DNA of 64,000 bases from an uncultured Clostridiaceae bacterium (GCA_964427595.1 CAYRUQ010000002.1:1149-65148); one strand, 5' to 3'; counted from the first letter of the stretch, positions 8,139 to 56,675 are shown. Program-made: numbers and translations. The notes: generated by a model not told the origin, from the sequence alone.

Positions 8139-8876
8139 ATGATTAAAATCGGTGTAATTGAAGACCAGAAAGAAGATCGAGATAGACTCTTATCCTTCAT
8201 CAAAAATAACGATAAAAACCAAGAGTTCCTAATCAATGAATTTGAAAATCCACTCCTTTTAATTGACAACTATACGCTTGATTACGACATTCTCTTCTTC
8301 GATATCAAAATGCCGATGATCGATGGCATGGAAGCGGCTAAAAAGATAAGAGAAAAAGATACGGATGTCATCATCGTTTTTATCACTTCATTGGCTCAAT
8401 TTGCTCTAGCTGGATATGATGTTCAAGCATTTGATTTTCTTGTCAAACCGATTGAACAAAATGAATTCAATTTGAAGTTTCATCGTATCCTTAAAAAAGT
8501 AACGGCTATCGGAAGAAGAGATAGTCAAGGAAGTAAATCGATATTAGTCAGCACCGGTAAAGAGAAAAGGAAAATCTTGATTGATGATATCAGTTTTATC
8601 GAGAGTCAAGGACACCATGTTTATATTCATCTTCTCTCGGAAACTGAACCGACGAGATGTTATGATTCACTAAGTAAATTTGAAAAGAATCTACCAAATA
8701 ATATGTTCGTAAGATGCAATAATTGCTACCTTGTCAACTTAAGAAAGGTAAAACAGATTTCTGGTTATGAATGCATAGTTTCTATCGATGATAATCAAAC
8801 TTGTACACTCCAAATTTCCCAGCCGAAGAAAAAGAGTTTTCAAGAGAGTTTCGTCTCCTTTTTAGAAGGTAAATAA
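8139..8876 (+). CDS. LytTR-family response regulator (AgrA/ComE-like)
   Basis: N-terminal receiver domain (phospho-acceptor Asp in DILFFDIKMP) and C-terminal LytTR DNA-binding domain. Confidence 0.85.
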   Translation: MIKIGVIEDQKEDRDRLLSFIKNNDKNQEFLINEFENPLLLIDNYTLDYDILFFDIKMPMIDGMEAAKKIREKDTDVIIVFITSLAQFALAGYDVQAFDFLVKPIEQNEFNLKFHRILKKVTAIGRRDSQGSKSILVSTGKEKRKILIDDISFIESQGHHVYIHLLSETEPTRCYDSLSKFEKNLPNNMFVRCNNCYLVNLRKVKQISGYECIVSIDDNQTCTLQISQPKKKSFQESFVSFLEGK

Positions 8877-8881
8877 TAAAA

Positions 8882-10279
8882 ATGATGGCTTTGATTGTTG
8901 AGATTTTCGGCACCTCATTTGGAACACAAATAGTCATCTCATTCAGCGGTGTATTCGAACTGTTTTTCTGTTCTATTCTTTTCAATTTGAAAACGAGAAA
9001 GAGAGATAACTATTTCTTATGGTTATTCTTCTGTTTCTGTCTATGTATCGCTAGCGGATTCATCTTAGCTTTCTTACGCTACCTCACTGGAGATAATTTC
9101 ATTGCCAAAACTATCGTCCACTCTCTTATCACGATCCTTGTCATGACTCTTCAAGTATTCATCCTTTATGACAAGACTACTTATCAAAAACTTTTAACCC
9201 TCTGTGCTTCTTATGCGACTTATATGTTGACAGGAAGGCTGATATCGCTTCTTTTAAACGCCTTTGGCGTCGATGATAAATTATCGATCTCTTTCTTTTC
9301 TGATTACAACGAAGTAAGAGATTGGGCGATTTATATCATCTTGCACCTTGTTTTATACTTCATCCTCGGTTTTATCTTCTATCATCGTGATGACATCATC
9401 GAAACTCCAAGGTCAAAAAGAAACACGCTTCTATTAACCATACCATCTGTATTACTCTCATCTTTTCTCTTCTCACTTTCAGACCCATATCAATCTGAAA
9501 GCTGGATGTTAACAATCCTCCTTAAATTCTTCTCTTGTATTATCTGTATTTTGATTTTGGTTTTACGCTCAGGCATTTTAAGAGAGAGCAAAGGGGAAGA
9601 AGAGAAAGTCGTCTTAGCAGAACTTTTTAAACAAGAGAAAGCACAGTTTGATAATCTCCGTTTATCAACAGAAGCGATCAATGCGAAGTTTCATGATATC
9701 AGACATCAATTAAATTCGATGAGCAGTAAACTGACTGAAGAAGAAAAGATAGCTTTCAGACAAGCTACCGATATGTATGACAGCACGATTAATACTGGAA
9801 ATGATGTTTTAAATGCGGTCTTGTATGAAAAACAGCTGATTGCCAAAAAAGAAAACATCAGACTGAGTGCACTTTGTGATGGAAAACTACTCTCCTTCAT
9901 GGAAGAGACCGAAATCTATTCTCTGATCGCTAACGCCTTGAACAACGCTTTTGAAGCTGTCCGTTCTCTTCCAAAAGATAAAAGAATCGTCGATATCACA
10001 CTAAGAAACGATAAAGGTCTCACTATTTTAAATGTCACCAATTACTATCAAGGAAATGTGACTTTATCTGATGAAGGACTTCCTATCAGCAGCAAAAAAG
10101 ACGGAGCAAACCATGGCTATGGTTCAAAAAGCATCCGTCTTATCGCTCAGCGTTACAAAGGTACTTTGTCTTATTCGATTGATGAAGAGATTTTCTCTCT
10201 CAGCGTATCTTTTAGCTTAGATGCTAAAGGGTTGGATTTTCAATCTTCATCGCAAACAGAGGAAAGTCATCGTAGATAG
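8882..10279 (+). CDS. HPK10 (AgrC/ComD-like) sensor histidine kinase, 6-7 TM
   Basis: Polytopic N-terminal sensor, H-box FHDIRHQLN, GHKL ATPase N-box ANALNNAFEAV and G-box GYGSKSI. Confidence 0.8.
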   Translation: MMALIVEIFGTSFGTQIVISFSGVFELFFCSILFNLKTRKRDNYFLWLFFCFCLCIASGFILAFLRYLTGDNFIAKTIVHSLITILVMTLQVFILYDKTTYQKLLTLCASYATYMLTGRLISLLLNAFGVDDKLSISFFSDYNEVRDWAIYIILHLVLYFILGFIFYHRDDIIETPRSKRNTLLLTIPSVLLSSFLFSLSDPYQSESWMLTILLKFFSCIICILILVLRSGILRESKGEEEKVVLAELFKQEKAQFDNLRLSTEAINAKFHDIRHQLNSMSSKLTEEEKIAFRQATDMYDSTINTGNDVLNAVLYEKQLIAKKENIRLSALCDGKLLSFMEETEIYSLIANALNNAFEAVRSLPKDKRIVDITLRNDKGLTILNVTNYYQGNVTLSDEGLPISSKKDGANHGYGSKSIRLIAQRYKGTLSYSIDEEIFSLSVSFSLDAKGLDFQSSSQTEESHRR

Positions 10280-11561
10280 AAAGAGCATAGAAAGGTCTAT
10301 CACAATCAAAGGTGATAGGATCTTCTGTATCAGGCATTGCTGATTCAGAACCAACTATAACAGTGACGCTCTCTCCTTTAACACCTGTGCGATCAAATTC
10401 AAACTTGCTATTTTGGCTCGCACTTAAAACAGAAAGTTCTCTCTCAACGTCATCAGCTAAGATCTTATCGCATAAAATCGGATTACCAGTGATCTGTTCT
10501 AAAAGAGAATCAGTGATATCAAAACTGCTTTCAACTGAGAAGAAAGGAATTTTACCTTGGACGAAATAGTAATCTCTATTCTCATAGAAATCTTGATAAA
10601 CATCAGTTAAATCGATATCAGTGAGCTCATATCCTTCATCAGGTAAGATGAAAAGGAGCTTCGTCTTTCTGATGTTTCTTAACAAAGCTGCGTAATTCTC
10701 TCCTTTGTAATAATAGTAATAACCATCAAGAGAAGAAAACTCGCATTCAACTGTCTCATTATCATTCAAATAGAAAGTGCTCGTAAAACTGGTCAATTCT
10801 TGAGAAAAACTATCCTTTAAAACTAAAGCACCAGCTAACACGATGGCATTAGTTAAATATTCAGGATAAGCAGGAACATCGATAGTCAAACCGATCAATT
10901 CTTCATAGATGGTTTGTAAATCCTGATGAGCATCTTCATAAGAGCTTTTAGCAAACATGATGTTGACATCGTCAAAGTCTTTGATTTTCGTCTTGTCAAT
11001 CTTGTATTTATCACCGACTTGCTGAATGACTGCTAATGATTTCAGATATGAAAGAGAATCATGCTCTTCATCACTCCAGTTGAGTCCATCAAGCAAAGCG
11101 ACTAACTCTTCTTTGACAGCTGAAGCTGTATAACCCATATTAGAAGCGAATTCTTCAATATCAGAACTGACTGCTAACTGAGCACCAACAGCGATAGCAA
11201 GAGAAGCTGGAGAGACGACTTGATTTCCTTCTTCTTCATTTAAATAAGGAGCTAATAAGTCTAAAGAAAAAGTGGCGATATTATTTAAAGATATCTCATC
11301 TAAATCGATACTCGTAACTGTCTGATTGAAAGAATAGTTGTTATTGTTTAAAAGAATCGAAGATAAACCGCTAGAAGTGAGAGATAGTGACACTCCAACA
11401 GAACCACCTATCACAACAACAGAAGCAAGAGAGATAATCAAAGGAAGTTTGATATTTCTTTTACTTTTAGTCAATGTGACATCAGAAGAAATAAAACTCA
11501 TATCAGAAGAGACAGGAAGAGAATCTTCATACTCTTTTTTAATCTCGTTTTTCAAGTTCAT
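10224..11561 (-). CDS. Membrane-anchored serpin-domain protein in the anti-sigma position (short cytoplasmic N-terminus, 1 TM, extracytoplasmic serpin fold)
   Basis: About 38 cytoplasmic residues with a KSKRNIK positive cluster, then TM LIISLASVVVIGGSVGVSLSL. Serpin helix-B-like NQVVSPASLAIAVGAQLA, hinge-like FDRTGVKGESVTVIV and strong C-terminal signature FDCDRPFYALSIYDDFPLFAMKIENP. Start codon overlaps the ECF sigma stop (ATGA). Confidence 0.75.
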   Translation of the reverse strand: MNLKNEIKKEYEDSLPVSSDMSFISSDVTLTKSKRNIKLPLIISLASVVVIGGSVGVSLSLTSSGLSSILLNNNNYSFNQTVTSIDLDEISLNNIATFSLDLLAPYLNEEEGNQVVSPASLAIAVGAQLAVSSDIEEFASNMGYTASAVKEELVALLDGLNWSDEEHDSLSYLKSLAVIQQVGDKYKIDKTKIKDFDDVNIMFAKSSYEDAHQDLQTIYEELIGLTIDVPAYPEYLTNAIVLAGALVLKDSFSQELTSFTSTFYLNDNETVECEFSSLDGYYYYYKGENYAALLRNIRKTKLLFILPDEGYELTDIDLTDVYQDFYENRDYYFVQGKIPFFSVESSFDITDSLLEQITGNPILCDKILADDVERELSVLSASQNSKFEFDRTGVKGESVTVIVGSESAMPDTEDPITFDCDRPFYALSIYDDFPLFAMKIENPTL

Positions 11562-12064
11562 AAATAACCTCCTATCAGGTCTTTTACTTTCTTTTTTATG
11601 CGATGGAATTTAGGTATAACTTGAGAGACGCTTTGAGAAGTAATAGAAGCAATGTCTTTAAAGGAAAGCTCGTAATAAATACGAAAAATGAAGATATCAT
11701 ACTCCTCAGAAGTGAGATTACTTCTTATCTTGTTAAGAAGAAGAGATGAAGAAGCTAGCTCAGCAGGTGATTCATCCTTACTTACGACTTCAATCTCTTC
11801 ATCAAGATGAATTGTTCTAGAGAGCTTTTTCTTTCTATCAAGAGCTTTGTTTCTTGTTATTGAACAAAGCCAAGAGATGAAAGAATCACCATGAAAAGAA
11901 GAAGCGTTTTTTAACGCATCAAGAAAAGCTTCTTGAGCGACATCCTCAGCTTCATCTTGTCTTTTTAAGATGTTGTAAGCGACATGTTTCAAGAGGCGGA
12001 AGTACTTCTCATAAACAGATCTGACCTCTTTTTCATCCCACTTTCTGAATTTTTGAAGGTTCAT
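11558..12064 (-). CDS. ECF-family RNA polymerase sigma-70 factor
   Basis: 168 aa; region 2 (DVAQEAFLDALKN...FISWLCSITRNKALDRKKK) and region 4 (LSFKDIASITSQSVSQVIPKFHRIKKKV); AAAGGAAA Shine-Dalgarno. Confidence 0.85.
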   Translation of the reverse strand: MNLQKFRKWDEKEVRSVYEKYFRLLKHVAYNILKRQDEAEDVAQEAFLDALKNASSFHGDSFISWLCSITRNKALDRKKKLSRTIHLDEEIEVVSKDESPAELASSSLLLNKIRSNLTSEEYDIFIFRIYYELSFKDIASITSQSVSQVIPKFHRIKKKVKDLIGGYL

Positions 12065-12159
12065 AGATTTCCTTTCATCTATAAAACATTTATCAAATTA
12101 AAAATATTCGTTTCTTTCAACAATTTTTCTGTTTTTATTTTAAGCAAAAGGCTGAAAAG

Positions 12160-12204
12160 TAAAAACAAAATAAAAACCGCACCCAACGTCGGGTGCGGGA
12201 GTTA
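12160..12204 (-). terminator. Rho-independent terminator ending the lipoprotein-GH3-membrane protein operon
   Basis: Perfect hairpin CCGCACCC-aacgtc-GGGTGCGG (12183-12204), followed on the minus strand by TTTTTATTTTGTTTTT. Confidence 0.6.
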
Positions 12205-12217
12205 CAAAGAGGTTTTA

Positions 12218-12652
12218 TCACTCTTCTTCAGGTATCTGTTTGAAGAATAGAGCTACCAGTTGAGTTAAGGTTCCGATGAGAATCAAGATGAACATTGATA
12301 GATAAATGGCTAGTGAACCACCAAACCAGTTGACACCAGTTGCGACATCGGCTAACGGATAAGCGACTAGATAGAGTTGACGACCGAGAGCGAAAGCGTA
12401 ACAAACAAGTGAGATGAATGGAATGATTCTGTCGACTAGTTTGATGTCATAGAAGAGTGTGGAAAGAGTGAGAAGTGAGCCGATAAGCATCAAAACGAAA
12501 GCGAGAGTTCTCGAATAATCGGTGATTTTTAATGAGCCTGGATCAATAGCGATATAACAGATTGACAAGAGCAGGAAGAAGGCTGCGACACCTAAAGAGA
12601 TATAGTTTCCAATCGTTCTCTTTCTGAAAATTGAATTTTTAATGTGATTCAT
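12218..12652 (-). CDS. Small 4-TM membrane protein of unknown function
   Basis: Four hydrophobic helices; ATG at 12652 with AGAGGG Shine-Dalgarno 3 nt after the GH3 stop (ORF-track start at 12658 is TTG). Confidence 0.5.
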   Translation of the reverse strand: MNHIKNSIFRKRTIGNYISLGVAAFFLLLSICYIAIDPGSLKITDYSRTLAFVLMLIGSLLTLSTLFYDIKLVDRIIPFISLVCYAFALGRQLYLVAYPLADVATGVNWFGGSLAIYLSMFILILIGTLTQLVALFFKQIPEEE

Positions 12653-12654
12653 CT

Positions 12655-15588
12655 TCAAGCCCTCTTCTTTCTCTCTTGGACATAGCTGATGATGGTTAAG
12701 ACGACTAAGGCGACACTACCTGCTCCAAGAACACCGATGATCGAGTAGATAGTGACTTCCCACCAAGGTGTATCTTCTGTGATGACATCATCTTCAGTGA
12801 TATCAGCCATGACGAAGTTTCTGACTAACATATAGAAATAGTGTTTGGCGATCTCCCGACTTCTTGACCAGAGATAACCGTCTCTTTCGGAGATGAGATA
12901 ATTCTTCATATCAGTAGTACCACGAGTCTCGTCGTTGTTGAATTGATCGATACCAGCAGCGATAGATTCAGCTGTATATAGATAATGGGTAGAACCTTTA
13001 GAGGAATCAGTCATAGCGACTCCCTTAAATCCCCACTCATCTCTTAAGACAGTCGTCATCGTCGCATAATGCATCGAGACAGTAGTCAAACCGACTCTCG
13101 CATTAGAAGTCATCGTTCCTAAACTTCCACCTTTAGTGAAGCTTCCTTCAAAGGCTTTTAATGGACCTTGACGATAAGCTTGTTCAGTCATCAAAGTTGC
13201 ACTTCCGTTTCTCCAAGCTTCCTGATCATTAGCACAGAAATGCTTCACATAAGTAGTGAGACCTTTATCAGTAGCAGCTTTAGTTTGAACAGCACCAGCG
13301 ATATAAGACATCGTCGTATCTTCGGAATAATATTCGAAGTTTCTGCCTCCATAAGGAGTACGATGCATATTGGCACCAAAACCATAGACGCCTGATTGAC
13401 CACAAGCCATACCATCTTCAGCCATGAAGAGACCTCTTGCTTCTAAAAGTTCAACATTCCAAGTCGAGCAAGCTAGATTCTCACAAACATGGGAGAAGCC
13501 AGCATTAGATTGAATACCATCAGGGCCATCAGCACTGGTGATGCTGGGGGCACCGACTTTGGTATAAGCGGGCATACCGAAAGCTTCACCAGAAAGAGAT
13601 GCTAATTCAGAAGGAGTGAGCTGATCGATAAAAGCATCCCAGGCTTCATCATCGTCATAATCAACATCTTTCATCTCAGCTAAGACGATAGGATCTTCTT
13701 CTCCATTCTCATCATAGTAAGTGACTGAATAATTGAAATCAGTGTAAGAAGGAGCATCATCAGGCGTCTCATAAGAATGTCCATCCAGAAGCTCTAACAT
13801 CTCATCTGTCGCAGTGATGTCATCAATTCTAGAAGGATAAGTATTCCAATCATCTCTGGTTAAGTAAGTGACAGCATCTTCGATATAGGTATTGAGATCT
13901 AAGTCATCGAATTGATTAGAGACGATTTCACCTGTCTCTGCGCTTCTTGCATGAGTGGTGTTATCAAGCGCATCTAAAGTGATAGTCTCAACTTGATTCT
14001 TATCACCGGAGACACTGTTTCCTTCAGCGTCGAATAAACCGGTGTAATTCTGACTAGCTAAGACATTGTTTAAAGCATCATGAGCATCTTTTCCGATAGC
14101 AAAAGCATAATCACCTTCATCAAAGACATAGCAACCAGTCAAAGAAGTATCAGCTCCATTGACTGCATTTTCATCATAGGTGGCAAAAAGATAATCATCG
14201 ACAGTGATGGTGACATCAGTCTCTTCACCGGGTTCTAATTCTTCCGTCTTAGCAAAGCCGATGAGTTGAATCGCACTCTTTTCAGATTGACCGGATTCAT
14301 AAGGAAGAGAGACGTAAAGTTCAACAACATCTTTTGAAGCACCTTTATAAGTGTTTCCTTCATCAACTCCAAGATTTTTTACATGAACAGTAGCTGTGAC
14401 AGTAGAGTTTTCTCTATCCCATTCAAGTGAAGTTAAAGTCTCTTCAAACTCGGCATAAGACTCACCATGACCGAAGGTATAAACCATCTCATCAGCGTAA
14501 TCCCATGAGTTATTATCAGAAGCATAAACACCTTTAGAAGAAGTGGCGTTATTGATACCTTTGACTTGATCAGCATATCTTGTCTCGTAATATTTGTATC
14601 CGATATAGATACCTTCCGCATAGACGAGATAGTGGTCTTGACTCATAGTTGAAACATTACTGAAAGAAAAGTTACCGTAGTTTCTCATCGCTGGACTTGA
14701 AAGAGAATCAGTAGCATAGGTATCAACAAGTCTTCCGCTAGGATCCGCATCACCTGCTAAGATGTTAGCGACTCCATCAAAACCGGTATAACCTGGATAA
14801 CCGATCCACAAACATGCATCGACTCCTAAATCTTCTAACTCACCGATATCCATCGTGGTACCGGTGTTTAAAAGAACGATAATCTTCTTGAATTGACCAG
14901 ATTCTTTTGCCAGTTTGATGACTTCTCTTTCTTCATCATGAAGTGAGAGCATCGGGACACCATCAACATCGATAGGATCTCCGTTTTCATCAGTCTCAAT
15001 AGCAGTATTAGAATCACCACCGGCCGCATAGTCTTGTTGTTCACCAGAATAACGACCAAGGGTGATAATAGCGGCATCTCCATATTGAGAGAAAGTATTA
15101 GCGTAACTGTTATAGAAAGAACCAGGGACTTCGCCGATATCACCTCTAGCTCTCGATTCATTAGAATCCGCTAAAGCATTAAAGACAGTTTGATTGATAG
15201 TGAAACCCTTAGCTGTCAAAGCTTCATAGAGATTGATGGCGTCATCATCAGTAGTTGCACTACCACCTGATCCACCTCTGAATATGTTATCAGCGGAAGT
15301 TCTTCCAAGAAGAGTGACCTTATCTGAAGAACTTAAAGGAAGAGCGTTGTTGTTATTAAAGAGAAGAACTGATCCTTCTTCCTGAGTTTGAATCTCATTT
15401 TCTCTTTCCGCTTCTCTCATCTCTTCAACAGAGTCATAATCACTCTGACCAAAATTGCTACTAGAAGTGATGCCTAAGAAGATATTTAATTGGCCAGCGT
15501 TATCAAATGCGAGATTGGCTCCAAAGATACTTAAAGCGAGAAGGGTCAGTGCGACTGCACTACCTCCTCTTAATTTTCTCGTATTCAT
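12655..15588 (-). CDS. Exported glycoside hydrolase family 3 (beta-glucosidase/xylosidase-like) with C-terminal TM anchor
   Basis: N-terminal signal peptide; GH3 motifs KHFCANDQE and GFKGVAMTDS (nucleophile Asp); C-terminal hydrophobic helix followed by the basic tail ERKKRA. Confidence 0.85.
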   Translation of the reverse strand: MNTRKLRGGSAVALTLLALSIFGANLAFDNAGQLNIFLGITSSSNFGQSDYDSVEEMREAERENEIQTQEEGSVLLFNNNNALPLSSSDKVTLLGRTSADNIFRGGSGGSATTDDDAINLYEALTAKGFTINQTVFNALADSNESRARGDIGEVPGSFYNSYANTFSQYGDAAIITLGRYSGEQQDYAAGGDSNTAIETDENGDPIDVDGVPMLSLHDEEREVIKLAKESGQFKKIIVLLNTGTTMDIGELEDLGVDACLWIGYPGYTGFDGVANILAGDADPSGRLVDTYATDSLSSPAMRNYGNFSFSNVSTMSQDHYLVYAEGIYIGYKYYETRYADQVKGINNATSSKGVYASDNNSWDYADEMVYTFGHGESYAEFEETLTSLEWDRENSTVTATVHVKNLGVDEGNTYKGASKDVVELYVSLPYESGQSEKSAIQLIGFAKTEELEPGEETDVTITVDDYLFATYDENAVNGADTSLTGCYVFDEGDYAFAIGKDAHDALNNVLASQNYTGLFDAEGNSVSGDKNQVETITLDALDNTTHARSAETGEIVSNQFDDLDLNTYIEDAVTYLTRDDWNTYPSRIDDITATDEMLELLDGHSYETPDDAPSYTDFNYSVTYYDENGEEDPIVLAEMKDVDYDDDEAWDAFIDQLTPSELASLSGEAFGMPAYTKVGAPSITSADGPDGIQSNAGFSHVCENLACSTWNVELLEARGLFMAEDGMACGQSGVYGFGANMHRTPYGGRNFEYYSEDTTMSYIAGAVQTKAATDKGLTTYVKHFCANDQEAWRNGSATLMTEQAYRQGPLKAFEGSFTKGGSLGTMTSNARVGLTTVSMHYATMTTVLRDEWGFKGVAMTDSSKGSTHYLYTAESIAAGIDQFNNDETRGTTDMKNYLISERDGYLWSRSREIAKHYFYMLVRNFVMADITEDDVITEDTPWWEVTIYSIIGVLGAGSVALVVLTIISYVQERKKRA

Positions 15589-15607: not shown

Positions 15608-16789
15608 TTAGACAAGGATAGGATCGACTAAATCAGCGATGTAACTGAAGGAATGAGTAGACTCAGTTAAGATGACATCAGTAGAATCAAAAGCAACAGA
15701 AGCTAAGTATTCAGAACCGCTAGTGATCGAACTCTTCTCACTCATCTCATCAGTCCAATTATCAGTATCAAGATAATACTGAGAATCATAGGCGATGACG
15801 CTAGCACTAGGTGCGACTAAGCTTAAATCAGTCAAAGTTTCATCTAAATCATTGGTGGCAGCAGAATAATCACCAGTGAATTTTTGAGTGTAGTTGACTC
15901 TCTCATTACCAGTAGCATCACTTCCTTCTTCAGGAAGAATCAATGCTGAGAATTGAGAAGAATAGATGTTGAACGAATAAGTGTTGTCTTCATATAAGAG
16001 GATTTGTTGTTGAGTGAAGTAAGTGATGTAGTAGTTATAAGCAGGTCTAGAGTTCATATAACCGAAATTAGAAGGAGATAAATATGCTCCGACTAAACCT
16101 TCAGTATCAGTGGAGAGAGTGACAGTAGGATCACTTTCATCTTCCCCTCTTAATTCGAAGTAATCAAAAGAATAGTTAGTCTTGCTGACTAAGATGGTCT
16201 TCTCACTGAAAGCTTTGCTAGCTAAATAAGTAGAAGCGGTGTAAGTGGTGGTGTCAGTGGAGACCGAAGCAGCCATATCATCATCCCACTGAGCAGTGTC
16301 GATAAAGTAAGTGGAGTCATAATTTTCAACAAGTCTATAAGGAACAGATAAAGTGACGTCGAGTGAATCTTCATCAAGATCATTAGTCACAGCTTCATAA
16401 GTTCCATAATAGATCTCGACACTATTCTCTCTTTCATTTGCAGTTCCATCAGAGGAATCTTCAGGAAGAATGACCGCCGAAAAGCAAGAAGAGGAATGAT
16501 AAAGGGCATAGGTGTTGTTGTCATAAAGTTCGAGCGTCTCATAAGCGAAAGTGGTGAGGTAATAATTATAGGTGGGACGGAAGTTAGAATAGCTCATGAC
16601 AGCTGGAGAGGAATAAGCACCGACTAAAGTTTTAGAAGTGGTAATTGTAGTAGAACTGCTAGTACTTTCAGTGATTTGTGAGCCATCAGTGCTAGTTAAA
16701 GAGGAATCACTAGTACTGGAGCAAGCGCTGAGGAAAGTAGTGATACCTAAGAGAGCGATTAAGGTTAAAAGTTTACCTTGTTTTTTCAT
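15608..16789 (-). CDS. Lipoprotein with two tandem ~170-aa repeat domains
   Basis: Lipobox LSAC after the signal peptide; internal duplication (LVGAYSSP...NFRPTYNYYLT vs LVGAYLSP...NSRPAYNYYIT); strong AAGGAGG Shine-Dalgarno. Confidence 0.7.
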   Translation of the reverse strand: MKKQGKLLTLIALLGITTFLSACSSTSDSSLTSTDGSQITESTSSSTTITTSKTLVGAYSSPAVMSYSNFRPTYNYYLTTFAYETLELYDNNTYALYHSSSCFSAVILPEDSSDGTANERENSVEIYYGTYEAVTNDLDEDSLDVTLSVPYRLVENYDSTYFIDTAQWDDDMAASVSTDTTTYTASTYLASKAFSEKTILVSKTNYSFDYFELRGEDESDPTVTLSTDTEGLVGAYLSPSNFGYMNSRPAYNYYITYFTQQQILLYEDNTYSFNIYSSQFSALILPEEGSDATGNERVNYTQKFTGDYSAATNDLDETLTDLSLVAPSASVIAYDSQYYLDTDNWTDEMSEKSSITSGSEYLASVAFDSTDVILTESTHSFSYIADLVDPILV

Positions 16790-26547: not shown

Positions 26548-28290
26548 TCAGTCCTGAGGGATGGTTATCTTCGGATAAGTGTCCTCATCATCGTAAGGTG
26601 ATTCGGTACGGAAGAGTTCAGGATAGTTCTCGATCATGTAATCGAGGAAATCTTCATCCGAATAATCCATCTCAGTTCTTCTCAACCAATAAACGACAGC
26701 TTCAGTCTTATAAGAACCGGTGGTGGACATGACATAAGCGACTTCTCTTCCGATCTGTTCTCTCTTAGTAGCATCAGAATAGACGGAAGTAGTAGAAGTG
26801 GTCGACATAGCTTGAGTGTTGACGACATCGAGGATTCTGACGAGATAGTAAGTGCTGGAATCAGAATCATAGAAGATGATGTCATCGGCAGAGATGGTGT
26901 CACTGCTAGAGGTGGAAGAAGAGACGGTGTTTTCGACGGTCAAATAACGATAACCATCGTTTCCATAAGTGGTGATGTCATATTTGACAGTACCAGGGTT
27001 AGCTTTCATCTCAGCAATCTCGTTAGCGTTGACGGTCATATTGGTGGAGAAGATACGATCGGAGATGGTATCAGGAAGGTTAGAGACACCATCGCTTTGG
27101 AGATAGATGCCATCAGTGACGAAGTCACTAGTGGCGATATCATCGATAGCTCTTCTGACACCAGTGAGGTAGTCATAGGTATAAGAGCCAGTGTAAGTAG
27201 ATTCAAGATCAGTATCGATCTTGTTGAAATCGCTAGCGCTAGCCTCTAAATCAGCTAAGTCATCTAAGACTTCACCAGAGAGAGTGCCATAGTTGGTATA
27301 AGTGCTATCTTCGCTTCCAGTGACGATGATGTTGTTATCTTCAAGCCAAGAGACTTGCTCATCATCAAGGAGGACAGCATCATAACGATCAGCATATTGG
27401 CCTTGTTCATCAAATTCATTGATGACATCAGTAGTGATACCTTTCCAAAGATTAGAGAGGATGGTGAAGTCATCATCGACACCGGCATCGCCGAAGACAT
27501 AATCGTTGACATAGGCGTCAAGAAGCTTCTTAGCGGCTCCAGGTTGATCATCTCTATCAGTGAGAGCGATAACTTGGATATTTCTAGCGTTGGCGTTACC
27601 GATAGAAGCATAAGAGACGGTGTAGATGTATTCACTGACTAAGTAATTGATGCGGATATCGTCATAGAGATATTTCTCCATGTAAGCGAGATAAGCATCA
27701 TAATCACCTTGGTAGATGTCTTCAAACTCTAATTCAGGAGTGACTAAGACACCAGCAGGATCTTCTTCCCAACCCTCGAGAGGATCGACAGGAAGAGTGA
27801 AAGCAGTCTTTAAGGCGTCGACATAAAGTCTTTCCATGAAGAGGTTGTCTTCTTCATAGGTGCCATTTCCGGCGACGTCAACTAAGCTGTCTTTAGAACG
27901 ATAAAGCTGGTTATCGGCATCTGCGACAGCAGGTAAATCAGCAACATCAGTATCAGCGACAGAACCATCAAAATTATCATTGATAAGATTGACGACATCG
28001 CTACCATCAGTGCCACCCTTGTTGTCATGGGCGATATGAGAGATTTCAATCAAGATCTGATTGAGGGTCTCCTCATAGATGTCATCATAGCTGGAGATGA
28101 GATTGTAATAGTAATCCTCTCTCGTATCTTGAACGACAGTGTTATCGTCAGCTAAAGTCGGGATATTGGGGAAGAGAACGGTCTCGTAGTCATCAGGTAA
28201 TTTGATCTCATCAGAGCAGGAAGCAAGGGTGAAGAGAGCAAGACCGCAAGCGATGATTCCTAACTTGTTCTTTCTTTTACCTTTCAACAT
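26548..28290 (-). CDS. Large Asp/Tyr/Thr/Ser-rich lipoprotein, unknown function
   Basis: Start placed at the ATG at 28290 with GGAGG Shine-Dalgarno; lipobox LASC (LALFTLASCSDE); no recognisable catalytic motifs. Confidence 0.6.
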   Translation of the reverse strand: MLKGKRKNKLGIIACGLALFTLASCSDEIKLPDDYETVLFPNIPTLADDNTVVQDTREDYYYNLISSYDDIYEETLNQILIEISHIAHDNKGGTDGSDVVNLINDNFDGSVADTDVADLPAVADADNQLYRSKDSLVDVAGNGTYEEDNLFMERLYVDALKTAFTLPVDPLEGWEEDPAGVLVTPELEFEDIYQGDYDAYLAYMEKYLYDDIRINYLVSEYIYTVSYASIGNANARNIQVIALTDRDDQPGAAKKLLDAYVNDYVFGDAGVDDDFTILSNLWKGITTDVINEFDEQGQYADRYDAVLLDDEQVSWLEDNNIIVTGSEDSTYTNYGTLSGEVLDDLADLEASASDFNKIDTDLESTYTGSYTYDYLTGVRRAIDDIATSDFVTDGIYLQSDGVSNLPDTISDRIFSTNMTVNANEIAEMKANPGTVKYDITTYGNDGYRYLTVENTVSSSTSSSDTISADDIIFYDSDSSTYYLVRILDVVNTQAMSTTSTTSVYSDATKREQIGREVAYVMSTTGSYKTEAVVYWLRRTEMDYSDEDFLDYMIENYPELFRTESPYDDEDTYPKITIPQD

Positions 28291-30322
28291 GGCAGAGGGC
28301 CTCCATTTCATCGTTATCACCATAGGAACCACTTTGGAAGTAAGAGACACAGACAGTAGGAACAACTCTCTTAGGAGCGTAATCTTCGTAAAGATTGAGC
28401 TGTCTTACATAAGTCTCCCAAGAAGAATCGAGTGAATCTTCGTTGGAGTTCTCGCTAGTTTCTCTGGTGTAATCGATATATCTTTGGATGATATCTTCAA
28501 CTGTCTCTTGATTTTCACCTAAGGTTTCATAGAAGGAAGTGCCATAGGTGGATTCATAGGTGGCTAAATTCTTCTCGTAAAGTTTGAAATCGTAATTTTC
28601 ATCAGAAGCAGAGATGGATGTACGAACATTCTCGATTCTGGAGGTATAAGCGCTGTTGGAATCATAGTCAGCGTTGATGTAGTTGACATAAGAAGGATAA
28701 GTGGAGTAATCAGTTGATTCAGCAGGTGTAGCATCATCATCGGTGGAAGGAATATTAACTCTCCAGTAGTTGTAGGATTCTTGTCCACTTTCTTCGATGA
28801 AGGGATCTTCCTTGACGACGATGAAGTGGATTCCTTCATAACCGGAGCTGCTGGAATCATCGTCATCAGAGCTAGAGGAAGAACCAGCTCTTGTGACCAT
28901 GATAGGATTACCATCTTCATCAACTAAAATGTCATGGTTAGAGATGGAACTGATAGAAGCAGTAGTGGATTCATATGTTTCATAAGTATAAGCGACGAGA
29001 TTATCAGAGATACCACTGTAATTGGTGAACTTGGTATCGGACATGGCTGCTAATTGAGCAGCAACATAGTCGTACTCTTGTAATCTGGAATATAAATCTG
29101 AATCATTTGCAGCAGCGGATCTAAGATCAGCGATGGTATTGAGGCTAGTTCCATAGACTTGATTAACTTCAGCTAAGAAGTTAGAAGCATAATCATCGCT
29201 ATCATCATAGATGAAGCAGACAGAGTGATTATTGAAATAGTTATTAAATAAGATATTTCGAGGATATTGAGTCTCATCAGTATAAGAGACGTTGGTCCCA
29301 TCATCAGCTCTTTCTTGGTTAGCGACATAATAGAGACGGAAAGCGACGGAGACCGGGATGCCATAAGCGTTTCCTTGACCGATTTGAGTAGAGGAGATCT
29401 CAGAAGAAACAGGGCTATCAGTCACTTCACCATTATCAGCATCCTCACCAGGAACTTGGAGGCTTGATTTGACTTCAGCGTTATCCTTGGTCTGAGGATT
29501 GATGAAAGCATCATAAGCATAGATGCCAAGTTTGAACTCGTTGACATAGCTGGTGGTCTTAGACATAGAAGCACCAGAAGAACCGCCTAAATCACCATAG
29601 GAGTCAGCAGAAGAATCATCAGAGAGGATTCTTGCGACATTACCGAAGGTAGTGGTGGAAGTCAAATTAGAAACGACGCTTCCGATTTGTAAAGCATCAT
29701 CAGCCGAGATGTGACCATCCCAAATACCAGTTCCGGTACTAGCGGAATCAGCATCAAGTTGAACTAAGATATGAGAGACATGATAAGGAGATTCTTTCTC
29801 GACGAATTCCTTAGTGTCATCTTCGGAGATGTAATAAAGTCCTCCGTACTCAGTATCTTCGCCAGCGGTATCAGTGTAATAAGCCTCAGAGTTGACTTCG
29901 TTTTGAACCTGAGCAGTTAATTTAGCACGATACTCGTCCATATCTTCGACGTGTTCATCGTCGAAAGTAGCTTCTTGCTCCTCTTTGTAAGAAGTACCAT
30001 TGGTGCTGGCGTTTTCTTCCCAAGTGTCTTCCATTTCCTCAATCAAAGCGTCAACACGGCTTGTGATGACGGAGTTGACAGGAGTGACAATCTGGGCTAA
30101 GACGTTCTTAGCAGTCTCATAATACGCTTCAGCAGAAGCTTGTTCCCCTTCGAACAGCTCGAAAATCTCATTGTAGGTGTAAGCTTTACCACCGACAGTG
30201 ACGATGATGTTATCTTGCCAGTCTGCATCCGGATAGGTGTAATCAGAACTACAGGAAGCAAGAACACCTGCGATGAGAGTGACGCTCATCGCCAAAGAAA
30301 AGGTTCTAATACCTTTTTTCAT
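28277..30322 (-). CDS. Large acidic Ser/Asp-rich lipoprotein, unknown function (possible parvulin-like segment)
   Basis: Lipobox LASC (GVLASCSSD); strong Shine-Dalgarno; SSSSSDDDDSSSSG run; YHVSHILVQLD resembles the parvulin/PrsA hxxSHILV signature. Confidence 0.6.
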   Translation of the reverse strand: MKKGIRTFSLAMSVTLIAGVLASCSSDYTYPDADWQDNIIVTVGGKAYTYNEIFELFEGEQASAEAYYETAKNVLAQIVTPVNSVITSRVDALIEEMEDTWEENASTNGTSYKEEQEATFDDEHVEDMDEYRAKLTAQVQNEVNSEAYYTDTAGEDTEYGGLYYISEDDTKEFVEKESPYHVSHILVQLDADSASTGTGIWDGHISADDALQIGSVVSNLTSTTTFGNVARILSDDSSADSYGDLGGSSGASMSKTTSYVNEFKLGIYAYDAFINPQTKDNAEVKSSLQVPGEDADNGEVTDSPVSSEISSTQIGQGNAYGIPVSVAFRLYYVANQERADDGTNVSYTDETQYPRNILFNNYFNNHSVCFIYDDSDDYASNFLAEVNQVYGTSLNTIADLRSAAANDSDLYSRLQEYDYVAAQLAAMSDTKFTNYSGISDNLVAYTYETYESTTASISSISNHDILVDEDGNPIMVTRAGSSSSSDDDDSSSSGYEGIHFIVVKEDPFIEESGQESYNYWRVNIPSTDDDATPAESTDYSTYPSYVNYINADYDSNSAYTSRIENVRTSISASDENYDFKLYEKNLATYESTYGTSFYETLGENQETVEDIIQRYIDYTRETSENSNEDSLDSSWETYVRQLNLYEDYAPKRVVPTVCVSYFQSGSYGDNDEMEALCHVER

Positions 30323-54296: not shown

Positions 54297-54362
54297 TACT
54301 TTAAATTAACAATTAAACAACAGAACAACTATTTGTTTCTTATTCCTTGGAGGACTCAATGT

Positions 54363-56675
54363 ATGAGCAAACAAACAAATGTAGTTGCGGCTAGAAAGCC
54401 GAAAAAACTAAAGCCACGATTTTGGAGTTTACTATTCGTAATCATCTTTGTCATTCTCTTGATCGTCGCTGTGGCAGGAGCTGTTGCTCTTTTCACCCCT
54501 CTCTATAATGTTATTATTGATGGCTTTGGTATCGACACCACTGCTGAAGTATCAACTTGGTCTAATTTCTTCCAAAACCTGTACACTTATGTGAAGGAAC
54601 ATGTTGCTTCCGGTTATGGACTATCATTACCCTTCTGGCTTACTGGTGAAGGTGCTCAAGGTGATGCAGGCACATCTTATATTTGGTCTCTTGCCTTTAT
54701 CCTTTACGCCTATTACCTAATTATTATCGCTGCCTTATTCTTTACTTCCTTACCTTTATTTGCTATGGGCCGCATCAAACTGAAGAAAAAGAGTTCAAAA
54801 GCTCGTCTCTATATCTTCGCTACTCTTAACTTCTTGATTATCGCTTTCGCTTCCTTCTGTCTTTTAGTCCAACCTTGGGCTGATGATTACTCTAATTACT
54901 TCGGATGGACTAAACAAATCTTCACCTATATTGAAGAAGCTCTCTTTGTCGAAGGTCAACCTCTCTCATTCTTAGCTAAGAACTCTTCCGAATCTGCTCC
55001 TTATGCTCATAGTTACTTTGCTTCCATTGTCTTTACATATCTTGCTGTGTGCGTCGTCTCTCTCATCCTTCAGATTCCTTCTCTCGCTGGCGGAAACAAA
55101 CCCAAAGCTAAAGAGAAGACTGTTCCTTATTATGAAAGAGAATATAGCGATATTCCCGATGAAGAAGAGACGATCCTCCCTCCTTCAACACAACCTGTCG
55201 CAGCTATTGCTAAAGAAGCTAAAGAAGAAAAAACTCCTACTGCTCCTGCCCAAATTTCAACACCTGTCGTCGTTGCTACTCCTGCTGAATTCAAAGCTGT
55301 AGAAGCTGAAATGGTTACTAAAGCCGAAGTAGCTCCTACCCCTGCTGCTCCTGCCACTGCACCTGTGGTTGAAACACCGAAAGAAGAAATCAGAGTTTCT
55401 ACTACTGAAATCAACATTCTCAATTCTCTTGAACCTTTCAAGCTCAATCCTGTTGAAACCTTACCTGGTTATTACAAAACTGATACCGATGCCATCCTCA
55501 ACGCTTTAGAGCCTAAGAACTTGAATCGTGTCGATCAGACTCCCGATGAAGAAGAAGTCGATCAAAGAATCAAGAAGATTCTTGAATCTCTCTCTGCTTC
55601 TCAAAAGAATGAAGTTGATATCTTACCTGGAATCGGTGAAACAGGTGAGACTCCTTGGGATACTAAGGTAGCCCCTCAAGAAACTAGAACTACTAGTGAA
55701 GTCGCTCCTACACCTAGAGAAACTCCTGTCCAACAAACTGTTGCTCAAGAAACCGCTGGTGATGAAGAAATCAAAGATATCACCATCGATGCTCAACCTG
55801 AAGCTACTAGTGAACCTGTTGTCGAAGAGATTGTCCATCAAGAACTTGGTGGTGATGATACTAGCAGAAACGCTATAACTACTAAGTACAACGATTTAGA
55901 TGAAGAAGACAAAGTCTCTAATGTCATCAAACAGGAAGAAGAGGAAGAAGCTTTAGGTGAATCTCGCTATGATGAGAGAGTCACTAAGACTGAGACTGAA
56001 CATGAAGAAGTCTATACAGCTGCTCCTACAACTGCCACTACTAGAACTGCTACTGAAGTAGAAGAGGAAGTCACTCCTAAAGCAGAAGAAACAACCACTG
56101 CTAAAGAAGAGACGGTTGAAGAAGTTGTCGAAGCTCCCGCTGTTACTGAAGCCCCTCTTGATGAAGATGAAACTCCTGTTGTCGATGAAGAAGCACTCGC
56201 TAGAAAACGTATCACCCCTGTCGCTCCGTTAGCTAGACAAGAAGAAACTGTCGAAGTCAAAGAAGAGAAACAATTGACTGCTGTCTCCGGTCCTCTCCAC
56301 AACATCAGAAGCGCTAGAAAAGACATCAAACCTGTCGAAGCTAGAAAAGTCAAATTCGATCTCCAACAATATCGTATCAAGACCTATGAAGGTGATCTCA
56401 GTGCTGAAGAAGCCTTCACTAAAGGTGTCACTAAAGTTCAACCTGTCGTCAATCCTGTCTTCATCAACCAGAATCAAAAATCCGACTTCTTACAACAGAA
56501 ACGTGAAGAAGAAGTCAGAAAATCTGGCTACACCAATGTCACTACTGCTAAAATCGTCAAACCTACACATGCTATCTCTAGCGCAAACAAACCTCTCAAG
56601 AAAGCCACCTCTATCCGTGAACTCGTCAAGCAGAAGAAAGAAGACGATTCTACTGACGATAATAAAGCCGAATAA
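54363..56675 (+). CDS. Large membrane protein: 4-TM N-terminal domain plus ~500-aa acidic Pro/Thr/Ala/Glu-rich low-complexity C-terminal region
   Basis: Start at the ATG at 54363 (MSKQTNVV) after GGAGG. TM helices lie within residues ~20-260. The C-terminus has a triple motif ILNSLEPFKLNPVETLPG / ILNALEPKNLNRVDQTPDEE / ILESLSASQKNEVDILPG and repeated VAPTP/TPVV stretches. It ends at the terminator. Confidence 0.6.
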   Translation: MSKQTNVVAARKPKKLKPRFWSLLFVIIFVILLIVAVAGAVALFTPLYNVIIDGFGIDTTAEVSTWSNFFQNLYTYVKEHVASGYGLSLPFWLTGEGAQGDAGTSYIWSLAFILYAYYLIIIAALFFTSLPLFAMGRIKLKKKSSKARLYIFATLNFLIIAFASFCLLVQPWADDYSNYFGWTKQIFTYIEEALFVEGQPLSFLAKNSSESAPYAHSYFASIVFTYLAVCVVSLILQIPSLAGGNKPKAKEKTVPYYEREYSDIPDEEETILPPSTQPVAAIAKEAKEEKTPTAPAQISTPVVVATPAEFKAVEAEMVTKAEVAPTPAAPATAPVVETPKEEIRVSTTEINILNSLEPFKLNPVETLPGYYKTDTDAILNALEPKNLNRVDQTPDEEEVDQRIKKILESLSASQKNEVDILPGIGETGETPWDTKVAPQETRTTSEVAPTPRETPVQQTVAQETAGDEEIKDITIDAQPEATSEPVVEEIVHQELGGDDTSRNAITTKYNDLDEEDKVSNVIKQEEEEEALGESRYDERVTKTETEHEEVYTAAPTTATTRTATEVEEEVTPKAEETTTAKEETVEEVVEAPAVTEAPLDEDETPVVDEEALARKRITPVAPLARQEETVEVKEEKQLTAVSGPLHNIRSARKDIKPVEARKVKFDLQQYRIKTYEGDLSAEEAFTKGVTKVQPVVNPVFINQNQKSDFLQQKREEEVRKSGYTNVTTAKIVKPTHAISSANKPLKKATSIRELVKQKKEDDSTDDNKAE

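Follow-up and report, generated by a model that had tools for sequence, protein, structure and literature searches.

An ECF sigma factor gene translationally coupled to a membrane-anchored serpin gene in gut Firmicutes: a candidate anti-sigma factor with a serpin sensor

The 64,000-nucleotide stretch of DNA analysed here (GCA_964427595.1, CAYRUQ010000002.1:1149-65148, from an uncultured Clostridiaceae bacterium; hereafter the window) carries on its minus strand a gene for a sigma factor of the extracytoplasmic function (ECF) type, followed directly by a gene for a transmembrane (TM)-anchored serpin that is a candidate anti-sigma factor. The two open reading frames (ORFs) were found as the original prediction had described them: the sigma gene occupies 11558..12064 (-) and encodes 168 aa, and the serpin gene occupies 10224..11561 (-) and encodes 445 aa. 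The TGA of the sigma gene and the ATG of the serpin gene overlap as ATGA (11561-11558), and a Shine-Dalgarno sequence, AGGAGG (11573-11568), is located 6 nt before this ATG inside the 3' end of the sigma ORF, forming a translational-coupling junction (11558..11573 (-)). The serpin gene thus has the downstream position, with the ATGA overlap and the internal Shine-Dalgarno sequence, that is expected of a membrane anti-sigma factor gene. On the other side of the sigma gene, a ribosome-binding site (RBS), AAAGGA, was read at 12070..12075 (-), and an ECF-type promoter was predicted at 12081..12110 (-), consisting of a -35 element CGAAT (12110-12106), a 17-nt spacer, and a -10 element TGTTTTAT (12088-12081). 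Further upstream, the intrinsic terminator of the preceding gene (12218-12658) was located at 12177..12198 (-), with a 9-bp stem containing 7 GC pairs, followed by TTTTTATTTT; by its position this predicted terminator delimits the sigma-serpin unit of transcription on the 5' side. With terminator, promoter-like element, RBS, and sigma start in succession, the operon is, as judged from these predicted signals, self-contained.

The sigma protein matched the Pfam model Sigma70_r2 with 62.6 bits, whereas the region 4 model (Sigma70_r4_2) gave 16.8 bits, which was under its cut-off of 25.7. The NCBIfam model TIGR02937 (sigma70-ECF) matched with 74 bits across residues 15-162, and both regions were consequently covered; hence, the claim that regions 2 and 4 are recognisable held for region 2 by itself, but for region 4 only by way of TIGR02937. 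The presence of regions 2 and 4 only and the length of 168 aa (expected, ~160-200 aa) identify the protein as an ECF (group 4) sigma factor, and its nearest solved structure was SigW (5wuq, E 1e-9). A named ECF group could not be assigned, since every match to an NCBIfam subfamily or equivalog model scored far under its cut-off. A word-indexed homology search with the sigma factor alone yielded 3 proteins, each of them a member of this pair family; related sigma factors with other types of anti-sigma factor were not obtained in this search, and the cytoplasmic helix described below was not demonstrable by homology as a general anti-sigma module. Neither the sigma factor nor the serpin protein matched the known anti-phage defence systems of PADLOC.

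The 445-aa protein is composed of a predicted N-terminal helix (residues 2-14), a stretch modelled with low confidence that ends in a lysine/arginine cluster, a hydrophobic helix (~40-62), and a serpin ectodomain. The best hydrophobic window was residues 41-59 (Kyte-Doolittle value, 2.28), preceded by K32, K34, R35, and K38, and the single TM helix was placed at residues 40-62 (11376..11444 (-)); judged from hydropathy alone, the protein crosses the membrane once, N-in, with its C-terminal domain on the extracytoplasmic side. This agrees with the anti-sigma-like topology proposed originally, as does the shortness of the cytoplasmic segment for a classical anti-sigma domain (~39 residues with one predicted helix). 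Residues 1-14 (11520..11561 (-)), which AlphaFold modelled as a helix over 2-13 or 2-14, form a conserved amphipathic cytoplasmic helix and are the candidate sigma-binding element.

The extracytoplasmic serpin domain (residues 95-443, 10233..11279 (-)) was matched by the Pfam profile PF00079 (Serpin) with 53 bits against a cut-off of 27 (E 4e-14), and the match extended over profile positions 3-370 of 370, so that the proposed profile check turned out positive over the whole profile. Two AlphaFold runs gave a predicted local distance difference test score (pLDDT) of 81 and a predicted template modelling score (pTM) of 0.80 with a 21-sequence alignment, and a pLDDT of 83 and a pTM of 0.79 with a 44-sequence alignment. 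Foldseek retrieved solved serpins at E ~1e-20 with target-normalised template modelling scores of 0.70-0.77, and a profile of the family matched only serpins in the Protein Data Bank (PDB) (conserpin, E 7e-12). A weak PDB match to 9hbk, a 'superinfection exclusion protein' (E 0.13), was attributed to chance and was gone in the profile search. The full-length profile match and the confidently predicted fold exclude a chance or low-complexity motif match, including for the C-terminal motif, and the models indicate that the serpin domain is divergent but genuine. All of the hallmark motifs quoted in the original prediction were present, namely NQVVSPASLA, with S117-P118 invariant in the family, FDCDRPF...PLFAMKIENP at 418-443, and the hinge, although the last was located ~45-52 residues, not ~35 residues, from the C-terminus.

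The hinge, G-V-K-G-E-S-V-T (P15-P8; residues 393-400, 10362..10385 (-)), was in register with the canonical G-T-E-A-A-A-A-T, and G393, G396, S398, and T400 were invariant in the family; in the models, it formed a strand paired to s5A. It is followed by the distal part of the reactive-centre loop (RCL; residues 401-417, 10311..10361 (-)), which was hypervariable, predicted to be disordered or exposed at 405-416, and modelled with pLDDT <50 at 404-416. Among 32 family members, the mean identity was 0.60 in the hinge, 0.18 in the distal loop, 0.32 in the core, and 0.58 in the following strands, and this combination of a conserved hinge and a variable loop is typical of serpins. The even hinge positions P14, P12, P10, and P8 were V, G, S, and T, respectively, all of them small, whereas P11 Glu and P9 Val were atypical. 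Odd hinge positions face the solvent after loop insertion. The register given earlier for P12-P9 (G-E-S-V) was right, but the bulky Glu and Val from which a repurposed fold had been argued lie at odd positions, and the residues at the even positions would allow the hinge to insert.

Homologues of the serpin protein fell into 13 clusters in a word-indexed search (E 1e-106 to 1e-29), and an exhaustive hidden Markov model (HMM) search gave 55 representatives at E<=1e-30, indicating a small, divergent family. When loci of the same architecture with enough upstream DNA were counted (the window, L001-L007, L009-L017, L018, and L023-L027), an ECF sigma gene (162-176 aa) was located directly upstream in 21 of 21 loci, the window included, representing roughly a dozen lineages; the overlap of the two genes was 4 nt or 1 nt throughout. 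The genes flanking the pair were unrelated between lineages, and the identities to the window proteins (sigma/serpin) fell in parallel, from 48/46% through 39-44/35-38% to 28/31%. The nearest relatives were uncultured Bacilli of the gut and rumen, Candidatus Enterosoma among them. These comparisons bear out the expectation that ECF sigma factors and TM-serpins co-occur in relatives, and they indicate that the gene pair is a conserved unit. An ordinary serpin with 24% identity (L008) had no sigma factor.

Within the family, two N-terminal types were distinguished: ~19 representatives had the cytoplasmic helix and the TM helix, and at least 25 were of the lipoprotein type, bearing both a signal peptide and a lipobox Cys. 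Three of the lipoprotein paralogues (L019, L020, and L031) had usable upstream sequence, and a sigma gene was adjacent in none of them (0/3); inspection of the translations indicated that the ORFs upstream of these genes look non-coding and are not sigma genes. Since these lipoprotein paralogues lack a sigma factor, the sigma factor travels with the cytoplasmic helix and not with the serpin domain as such, and, taken as a control at the sequence level, they strengthen the reading of the TM-serpin as an anti-sigma factor. The lipoprotein sister group (P0013, P0023, P0025-P0028, P0031, P0034-P0039, P0043, P0045, P0047, and others) occurs in the same uncultured Bacilli, has the hinge G-V-x-G-E-S-I-T and no adjacent sigma gene, and presumably consists of plain surface inhibitors. 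Longer proteins with a C-terminal or mid-protein serpin domain were also observed (P0037, 741 aa; P0087, 1154 aa; P0096, 1072 aa; P0078, 817 aa).

The cytoplasmic helix was confined to the sigma-linked members of the family. Conservation of residues 1-12 exceeded the protein average both in clade A, to which the window belongs (0.43 vs 0.32), and in clade B (0.61 vs 0.43); in the TM-anchored forms, these residues were far more conserved than the TM helix or the linker and were the best-conserved part outside the serpin core. Hydrophobic residues recurred at positions 3, 7, 11, and 15, and the N-terminal motif of clade B was M-x-F-E-K-x-M-K-K-H-I...V-P-N-P-Y. Such strong constraint on residues 1-12, though the paralogues anchor well through lipid, argues for a cytoplasmic partner, and the translationally coupled sigma factor is the obvious candidate for the partner that the helix would bind. 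In clade A, the sigma factors themselves end in ...L-G-G-(K/R/Y)-(L/I), which is encoded by the same bases (GGAGG) as the Shine-Dalgarno sequence of the serpin gene (window 11568-11573); because of this double use, the conservation of the clade A sigma C-terminus may partly mirror the constraint of translational coupling.

The exhaustive search also gave ~20 more distant representatives that were canonical serpins (Pfam, 177-241 bits) with the hinge E-E-G-V-E/K-A-A-A and a different cytoplasmic N-terminal motif (e.g. MKHEEILTALEQISDKHIKEAEKPPKKKK), followed by a TM helix. A profile of these canonical TM-serpins matched 2,818 proteins at E<=1e-30, a number that certainly includes non-anchored serpins; the top matches were ~473 aa in length and came from Lachnospiraceae and Agathobacter, and the N-terminal motif was present in 119 of the 119 checked. 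An ECF sigma gene was located directly upstream in four of the four lineages examined (L032; L033-35; L036; L037), with an overlap of 11 or 4 nt and with unrelated neighbourhoods. The sigma factor of this class matched TIGR02937 with 71 bits and was 27% identical to that of the window. At L036:1007-4368, a TM-serpin (473 aa), an ECF sigma factor (184 aa), and a second TM-serpin (455 aa) were encoded; the two paralogues had near-identical cytoplasmic N-termini (MDEKKIYDAITDIPD... and MKEREIYDAITNLPD...) and different RCLs, and may be two baits for one sigma factor. The distance from the hinge Gly to D-R-P-F was 28 residues in the window protein, the same as in the canonical TM-serpins, and the G-V-K start of the hinge was also common to them; together with the ILPDEG motif, the shared RCL length and hinge start suggest common descent rather than convergence. 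As far as sequence comparison goes, the window locus is a divergent member of a broad class of sigma factor and TM-serpin pairs in gut Firmicutes.

A bipartite promoter motif was found upstream of the sigma gene in all 14 of the family loci examined, 22-36 nt before the sigma start. In clade B it read TG(A/G)(A/G)C, 18 nt, (C/T)GTC, which is the classical ECF GAAC...CGTC type, and in clade A it read CGAAT, 17 nt, (C/T)GT(C/T)(A/T)TAT, the window's own -10 element having TGTT. The window motif matched once in the 64 kb, with 0.03 matches expected; the background rate of the -10 pattern was 0.04 per 60 nt. A common promoter for the Lachnospiraceae class was not definable from its 4 loci. A conserved ECF-type promoter before the sigma gene fits positive autoregulation, a common trait of ECF sigma factors, and the operon promoter is probably recognised by this sigma factor and positively autoregulated.

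Taken together, these findings suggest, with a probability that we put at about 0.6, a positively autoregulated ECF sigma/anti-sigma module in which a single-pass anti-sigma factor with a serpin sensor responds to extracellular proteases. We infer that the tail binds the sigma factor, that regulated proteolysis acts as the relay, and that the operon is autoregulated. In the resting state, the N-terminal amphipathic helix (residues ~2-14) would tether the sigma factor at the membrane. Extracellular serine-type proteases, whether host digestive enzymes, those of neutrophils, or those of other microbes, would then attack the hypervariable RCL, and the irreversible conformational change of the serpin and/or the covalent complex with the protease would render the anchored protein susceptible to proteolysis next to and within the membrane. 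The sigma factor thus freed would transcribe its own operon and possibly other genes, so that the consumed suicide inhibitor would be replaced on the cell surface. The parts of this proposal differ in strength: that the two proteins are a sigma/anti-sigma pair with the serpin as the sensor is very probable, and a protease is the most probable signal, with chances that appear evenly balanced. Only as a tentative and rather doubtful extension do we suggest that irreversible protease capture by the anchored serpin itself frees the ECF sigma factor, which would couple the use of the inhibitor stoichiometrically to its resynthesis; in this extension, different loops, including those of the two L036 paralogues, would tune which proteases are sensed.

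Several observations weigh against this proposal. The N-terminus had no Pfam or NCBIfam anti-sigma match at E up to 1, and no class I anti-sigma domain (RsiW/RseA/ChrR type, zf-HC2), with its 3-4 helices in roughly 70-90 residues, was found; the ~39-residue cytoplasmic part with a single helix is shorter than such domains. Cleavage in the RCL would remove only ~38 C-terminal residues and leave an ectodomain too long for the usual needs of a site-2 protease, so that an extra exposure step must be assumed. A speculative candidate for this step is a cut of the signal-peptidase type behind the TM helix, as in RsiV, whose destruction runs via signal-peptidase and RasP steps. Neither a site-2 (M50) protease nor a secreted protease is encoded in the 64-kb window. 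The promoter search that had been proposed did yield a motif upstream of the sigma gene itself, but across the window it yielded only this one, with no further copy that could mark a regulon. The very short tail and the lack of a recognisable anti-sigma domain would also suit a membrane serpin that is an effector only, namely a surface protease inhibitor under the control of the adjacent sigma factor, the latter being regulated elsewhere, either transcriptionally or by an unlinked regulator; membrane-anchored inhibitory serpins without a signalling role are known, and some ECF groups are without an identified regulator (PMC7826278). We consider this explanation quite improbable because a mere anchor needs no conserved cytoplasmic amphipathic helix, the lipoprotein paralogues being anchored without one, and because the helix and the sigma factor strictly co-occur (21/21 vs 0/3). 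Furthermore, a gene directly downstream with an overlapping stop and start is in the hallmark position of a cognate anti-sigma factor gene, and two unrelated N-terminal motifs each go with a sigma clade of their own. A fortuitous adjacency of the two genes, or a serpin similarity that is an artefact, is refuted by the data, since the pair persists in more than 20 loci whose flanks differ and recurs with a second serpin class, and since the profile match is full-length and the fold confident.

The structural models bear on another explanation, in which the sigma/anti-sigma pair is genuine but the serpin of the window family is a non-inhibitory, loop-inserted (relaxed) scaffold that senses a ligand or the state of the envelope, or else a stable ectodomain that is degraded by an endogenous site-1 protease as in RsiW and RseA. 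The structure prediction requested by the original account confirmed the serpin fold, but of the RCL only 405-416 was exposed: in both AlphaFold models, obtained with two alignments, residues 393-402 of the hinge were hairpinned with s5A at a pLDDT of ~95 in a latent-like arrangement, and the best structural matches were latent or cleaved serpins. Should the protein really be latent-like in its ground state, as modelled, the domain would not be a metastable inhibitor. In addition, P11 Glu is unusual among inhibitory serpins, a manual reading against alpha-1-antitrypsin suggests that another residue has taken the place of the breach tryptophan (W194) in the family, and the Pfam score is low (53 bits vs 177-241 bits for the canonical TM-serpins); these points count against the proposed protease sensor and for a relaxed scaffold, as does the existence of non-inhibitory serpins with binding roles, such as hormone carriers and HSP47. 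However, the inserted hinge in the models may simply reflect a preference of AlphaFold for the thermodynamically most stable serpin state. The hinge is also the most conserved short motif, has small inward-facing residues, and is followed by a hypervariable loop, which is the pattern of a bait loop; the RCL has the same length as in the canonical sigma-coupled serpins with AAA hinges, and the lipoprotein paralogues with the same hinge resemble surface inhibitors. On this evidence, a non-inhibitory, relaxed serpin domain, though in better standing than an effector-only role, appears unlikely.

The protease-responsive module proposed here can be compared with known systems. The RsiV/sigma-V system of Bacillus subtilis, Enterococcus, and Clostridioides is similar in that a single-pass anti-sigma factor lies beside an ECF sigma factor and that, in RsiV, the ectodomain directly engages a host defence enzyme. 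However, the RsiV ectodomain is not a serpin and binds lysozyme non-covalently, and the cytoplasmic anti-sigma domain of RsiV is longer; the window protein would, by analogy, engage a protease as its ligand, in a suicide-substrate reaction that is irreversible. As stated in PMC4183432, RsiV is a receptor-type anti-sigma factor for lysozyme, whose engagement leads to destruction of the anti-sigma factor and a protective response. In its logic, the window module would be analogous, with proteases taking the place that lysozyme has for RsiV/sigma-V. RseA/sigma-E and RsiW/sigma-W are likewise ECF sigma factors held by membrane anti-sigma factors, theirs being freed by extracytoplasmic and then intramembrane cleavage, and SigW was the closest solved relative of the window sigma factor. 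Site-1 cleavage of RseA and RsiW is carried out by a dedicated endogenous protease (DegS and PrsW), and their ectodomain is not an inhibitor fold; they also differ in carrying class I anti-sigma domains, which were not detectable in the window protein. The membrane receptors BlaR1 and MecR1 react covalently and irreversibly with the beta-lactam that they sense, leading to proteolytic signalling and the induction of resistance. The proposal for the window serpin is analogous in that an extracellular domain would react irreversibly with the sensed threat, whereas BlaR1 and MecR1 have a penicillin-binding sensor and a zinc protease domain, and their output is repressor cleavage, not sigma release.

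Among bacterial serpins, miropin of Tannerella forsythia is a surface lipoprotein that forms covalent complexes with foreign proteases on cells; it shares the serpin fold with the window protein and its type of anchoring with the lipoprotein paralogues. The siropins of Eubacterium siraeum inhibit human neutrophil elastase and proteinase 3 (PMC5127057). No cytoplasmic tail or linked sigma factor has been described for miropin or the siropins, in which they differ from the window protein. The earlier assertion that bacterial serpins are normally soluble or secreted calls for a correction, since anchored ones are already known: besides miropin, the Bifidobacterium longum serpin BL0108 is N-terminally membrane anchored, according to PMC8012564. 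The same paper reports, with reference to Alvarez-Martin 2012, that in Bifidobacterium breve external proteases raise the expression of an autoregulated serpin via a two-component system adjoining the serpin gene. There, a separate histidine kinase and response regulator do the sensing, whereas in the window the serpin itself is in the sensor position.

Membrane anchoring of bacterial serpins, protease-inducible serpin expression, and ECF modules with varied sensors are thus known. The full-text literature searched, which included a serpin phylogeny paper and gut-serpin reviews, described no connection of serpins with sigma or anti-sigma factors; the main text of the ECF reclassification paper (PMC7826278) contained no mention of serpins, its supplementary per-group context tables being outside that check. 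This suggests that a serpin in the sensor position of a sigma/anti-sigma pair is new with respect to the literature searched, so that the supposed lack of precedent held in that respect; the pairing is, however, not peculiar to this locus and also involves canonical serpins with a classical hinge in Lachnospiraceae and relatives. Until now, the serpins of bacteria have been viewed as inhibitors that act alone, of anti-inflammatory interest in inflammatory bowel disease (PMC5127057, PMC8201313). Many serpins of gut Firmicutes seem, however, to be anchored in the membrane and coupled to a sigma factor of their own; if so, the study of their expression, localisation, and physiological role would change, and there would be a direct way to learn how commensals sense the proteolytic activity of the host. 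Among the signalling systems of bacteria, ECF sigma/anti-sigma pairs are a major one, and to our knowledge the input signal of most of them is unknown. The well-understood biochemistry of a serpin sensor immediately suggests a ligand, proteases, and simple experiments. If the capture of a protease is itself the signal, the mechanism would represent a new input for ECF signalling and the first signalling role of a bacterial serpin, found in abundant human-gut Lachnospiraceae. The module could also serve as a protease-responsive genetic switch.

The remainder of the window is a low-GC housekeeping chromosome region that points to a member of the Bacilli with a reduced genome, with genes for a tRNA synthetase, Suf, GatAB, queuosine, DnaB, ligase, and similar functions. 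A LytTR response regulator gene (8139-8876 (+)) and a GHKL histidine kinase gene (8882-10279 (+)) run towards the serpin gene from the opposite side. The ORF of the kinase shares 56 nt (10224-10279) with the 3' end of the serpin gene, and both ORFs contain a terminator-like hairpin (10207-10232, + strand). On the other side of the operon, window 12218-15588 (-) encodes a 977-aa glycoside hydrolase family 3 (GH3) protein with a permuted domain order (GH3 C-domain, 74-331; Fn3-like domain, 420-501; GH3 N-domain, 680-879), a signal-like segment at the N-terminus, and a hydrophobic anchor at the C-terminus; its gene is followed, with a 4-nt overlap, by that of a 146-aa multi-TM protein without a family match. 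Large ORFs of 605, 681, 393, and 780 aa (window 26548-30322 (-), 15608-16789 (-), and 54333-56675 (+)) had no Pfam match at E<=0.01; the only hint for them came from PADLOC, in which a model of a type I restriction enzyme weakly matched the 605-aa ORF (E 2e-4). The ORF pair at 26.5-30.3 kb is located in the only stretch of the window with a higher GC content (0.42) and a positive GC skew.

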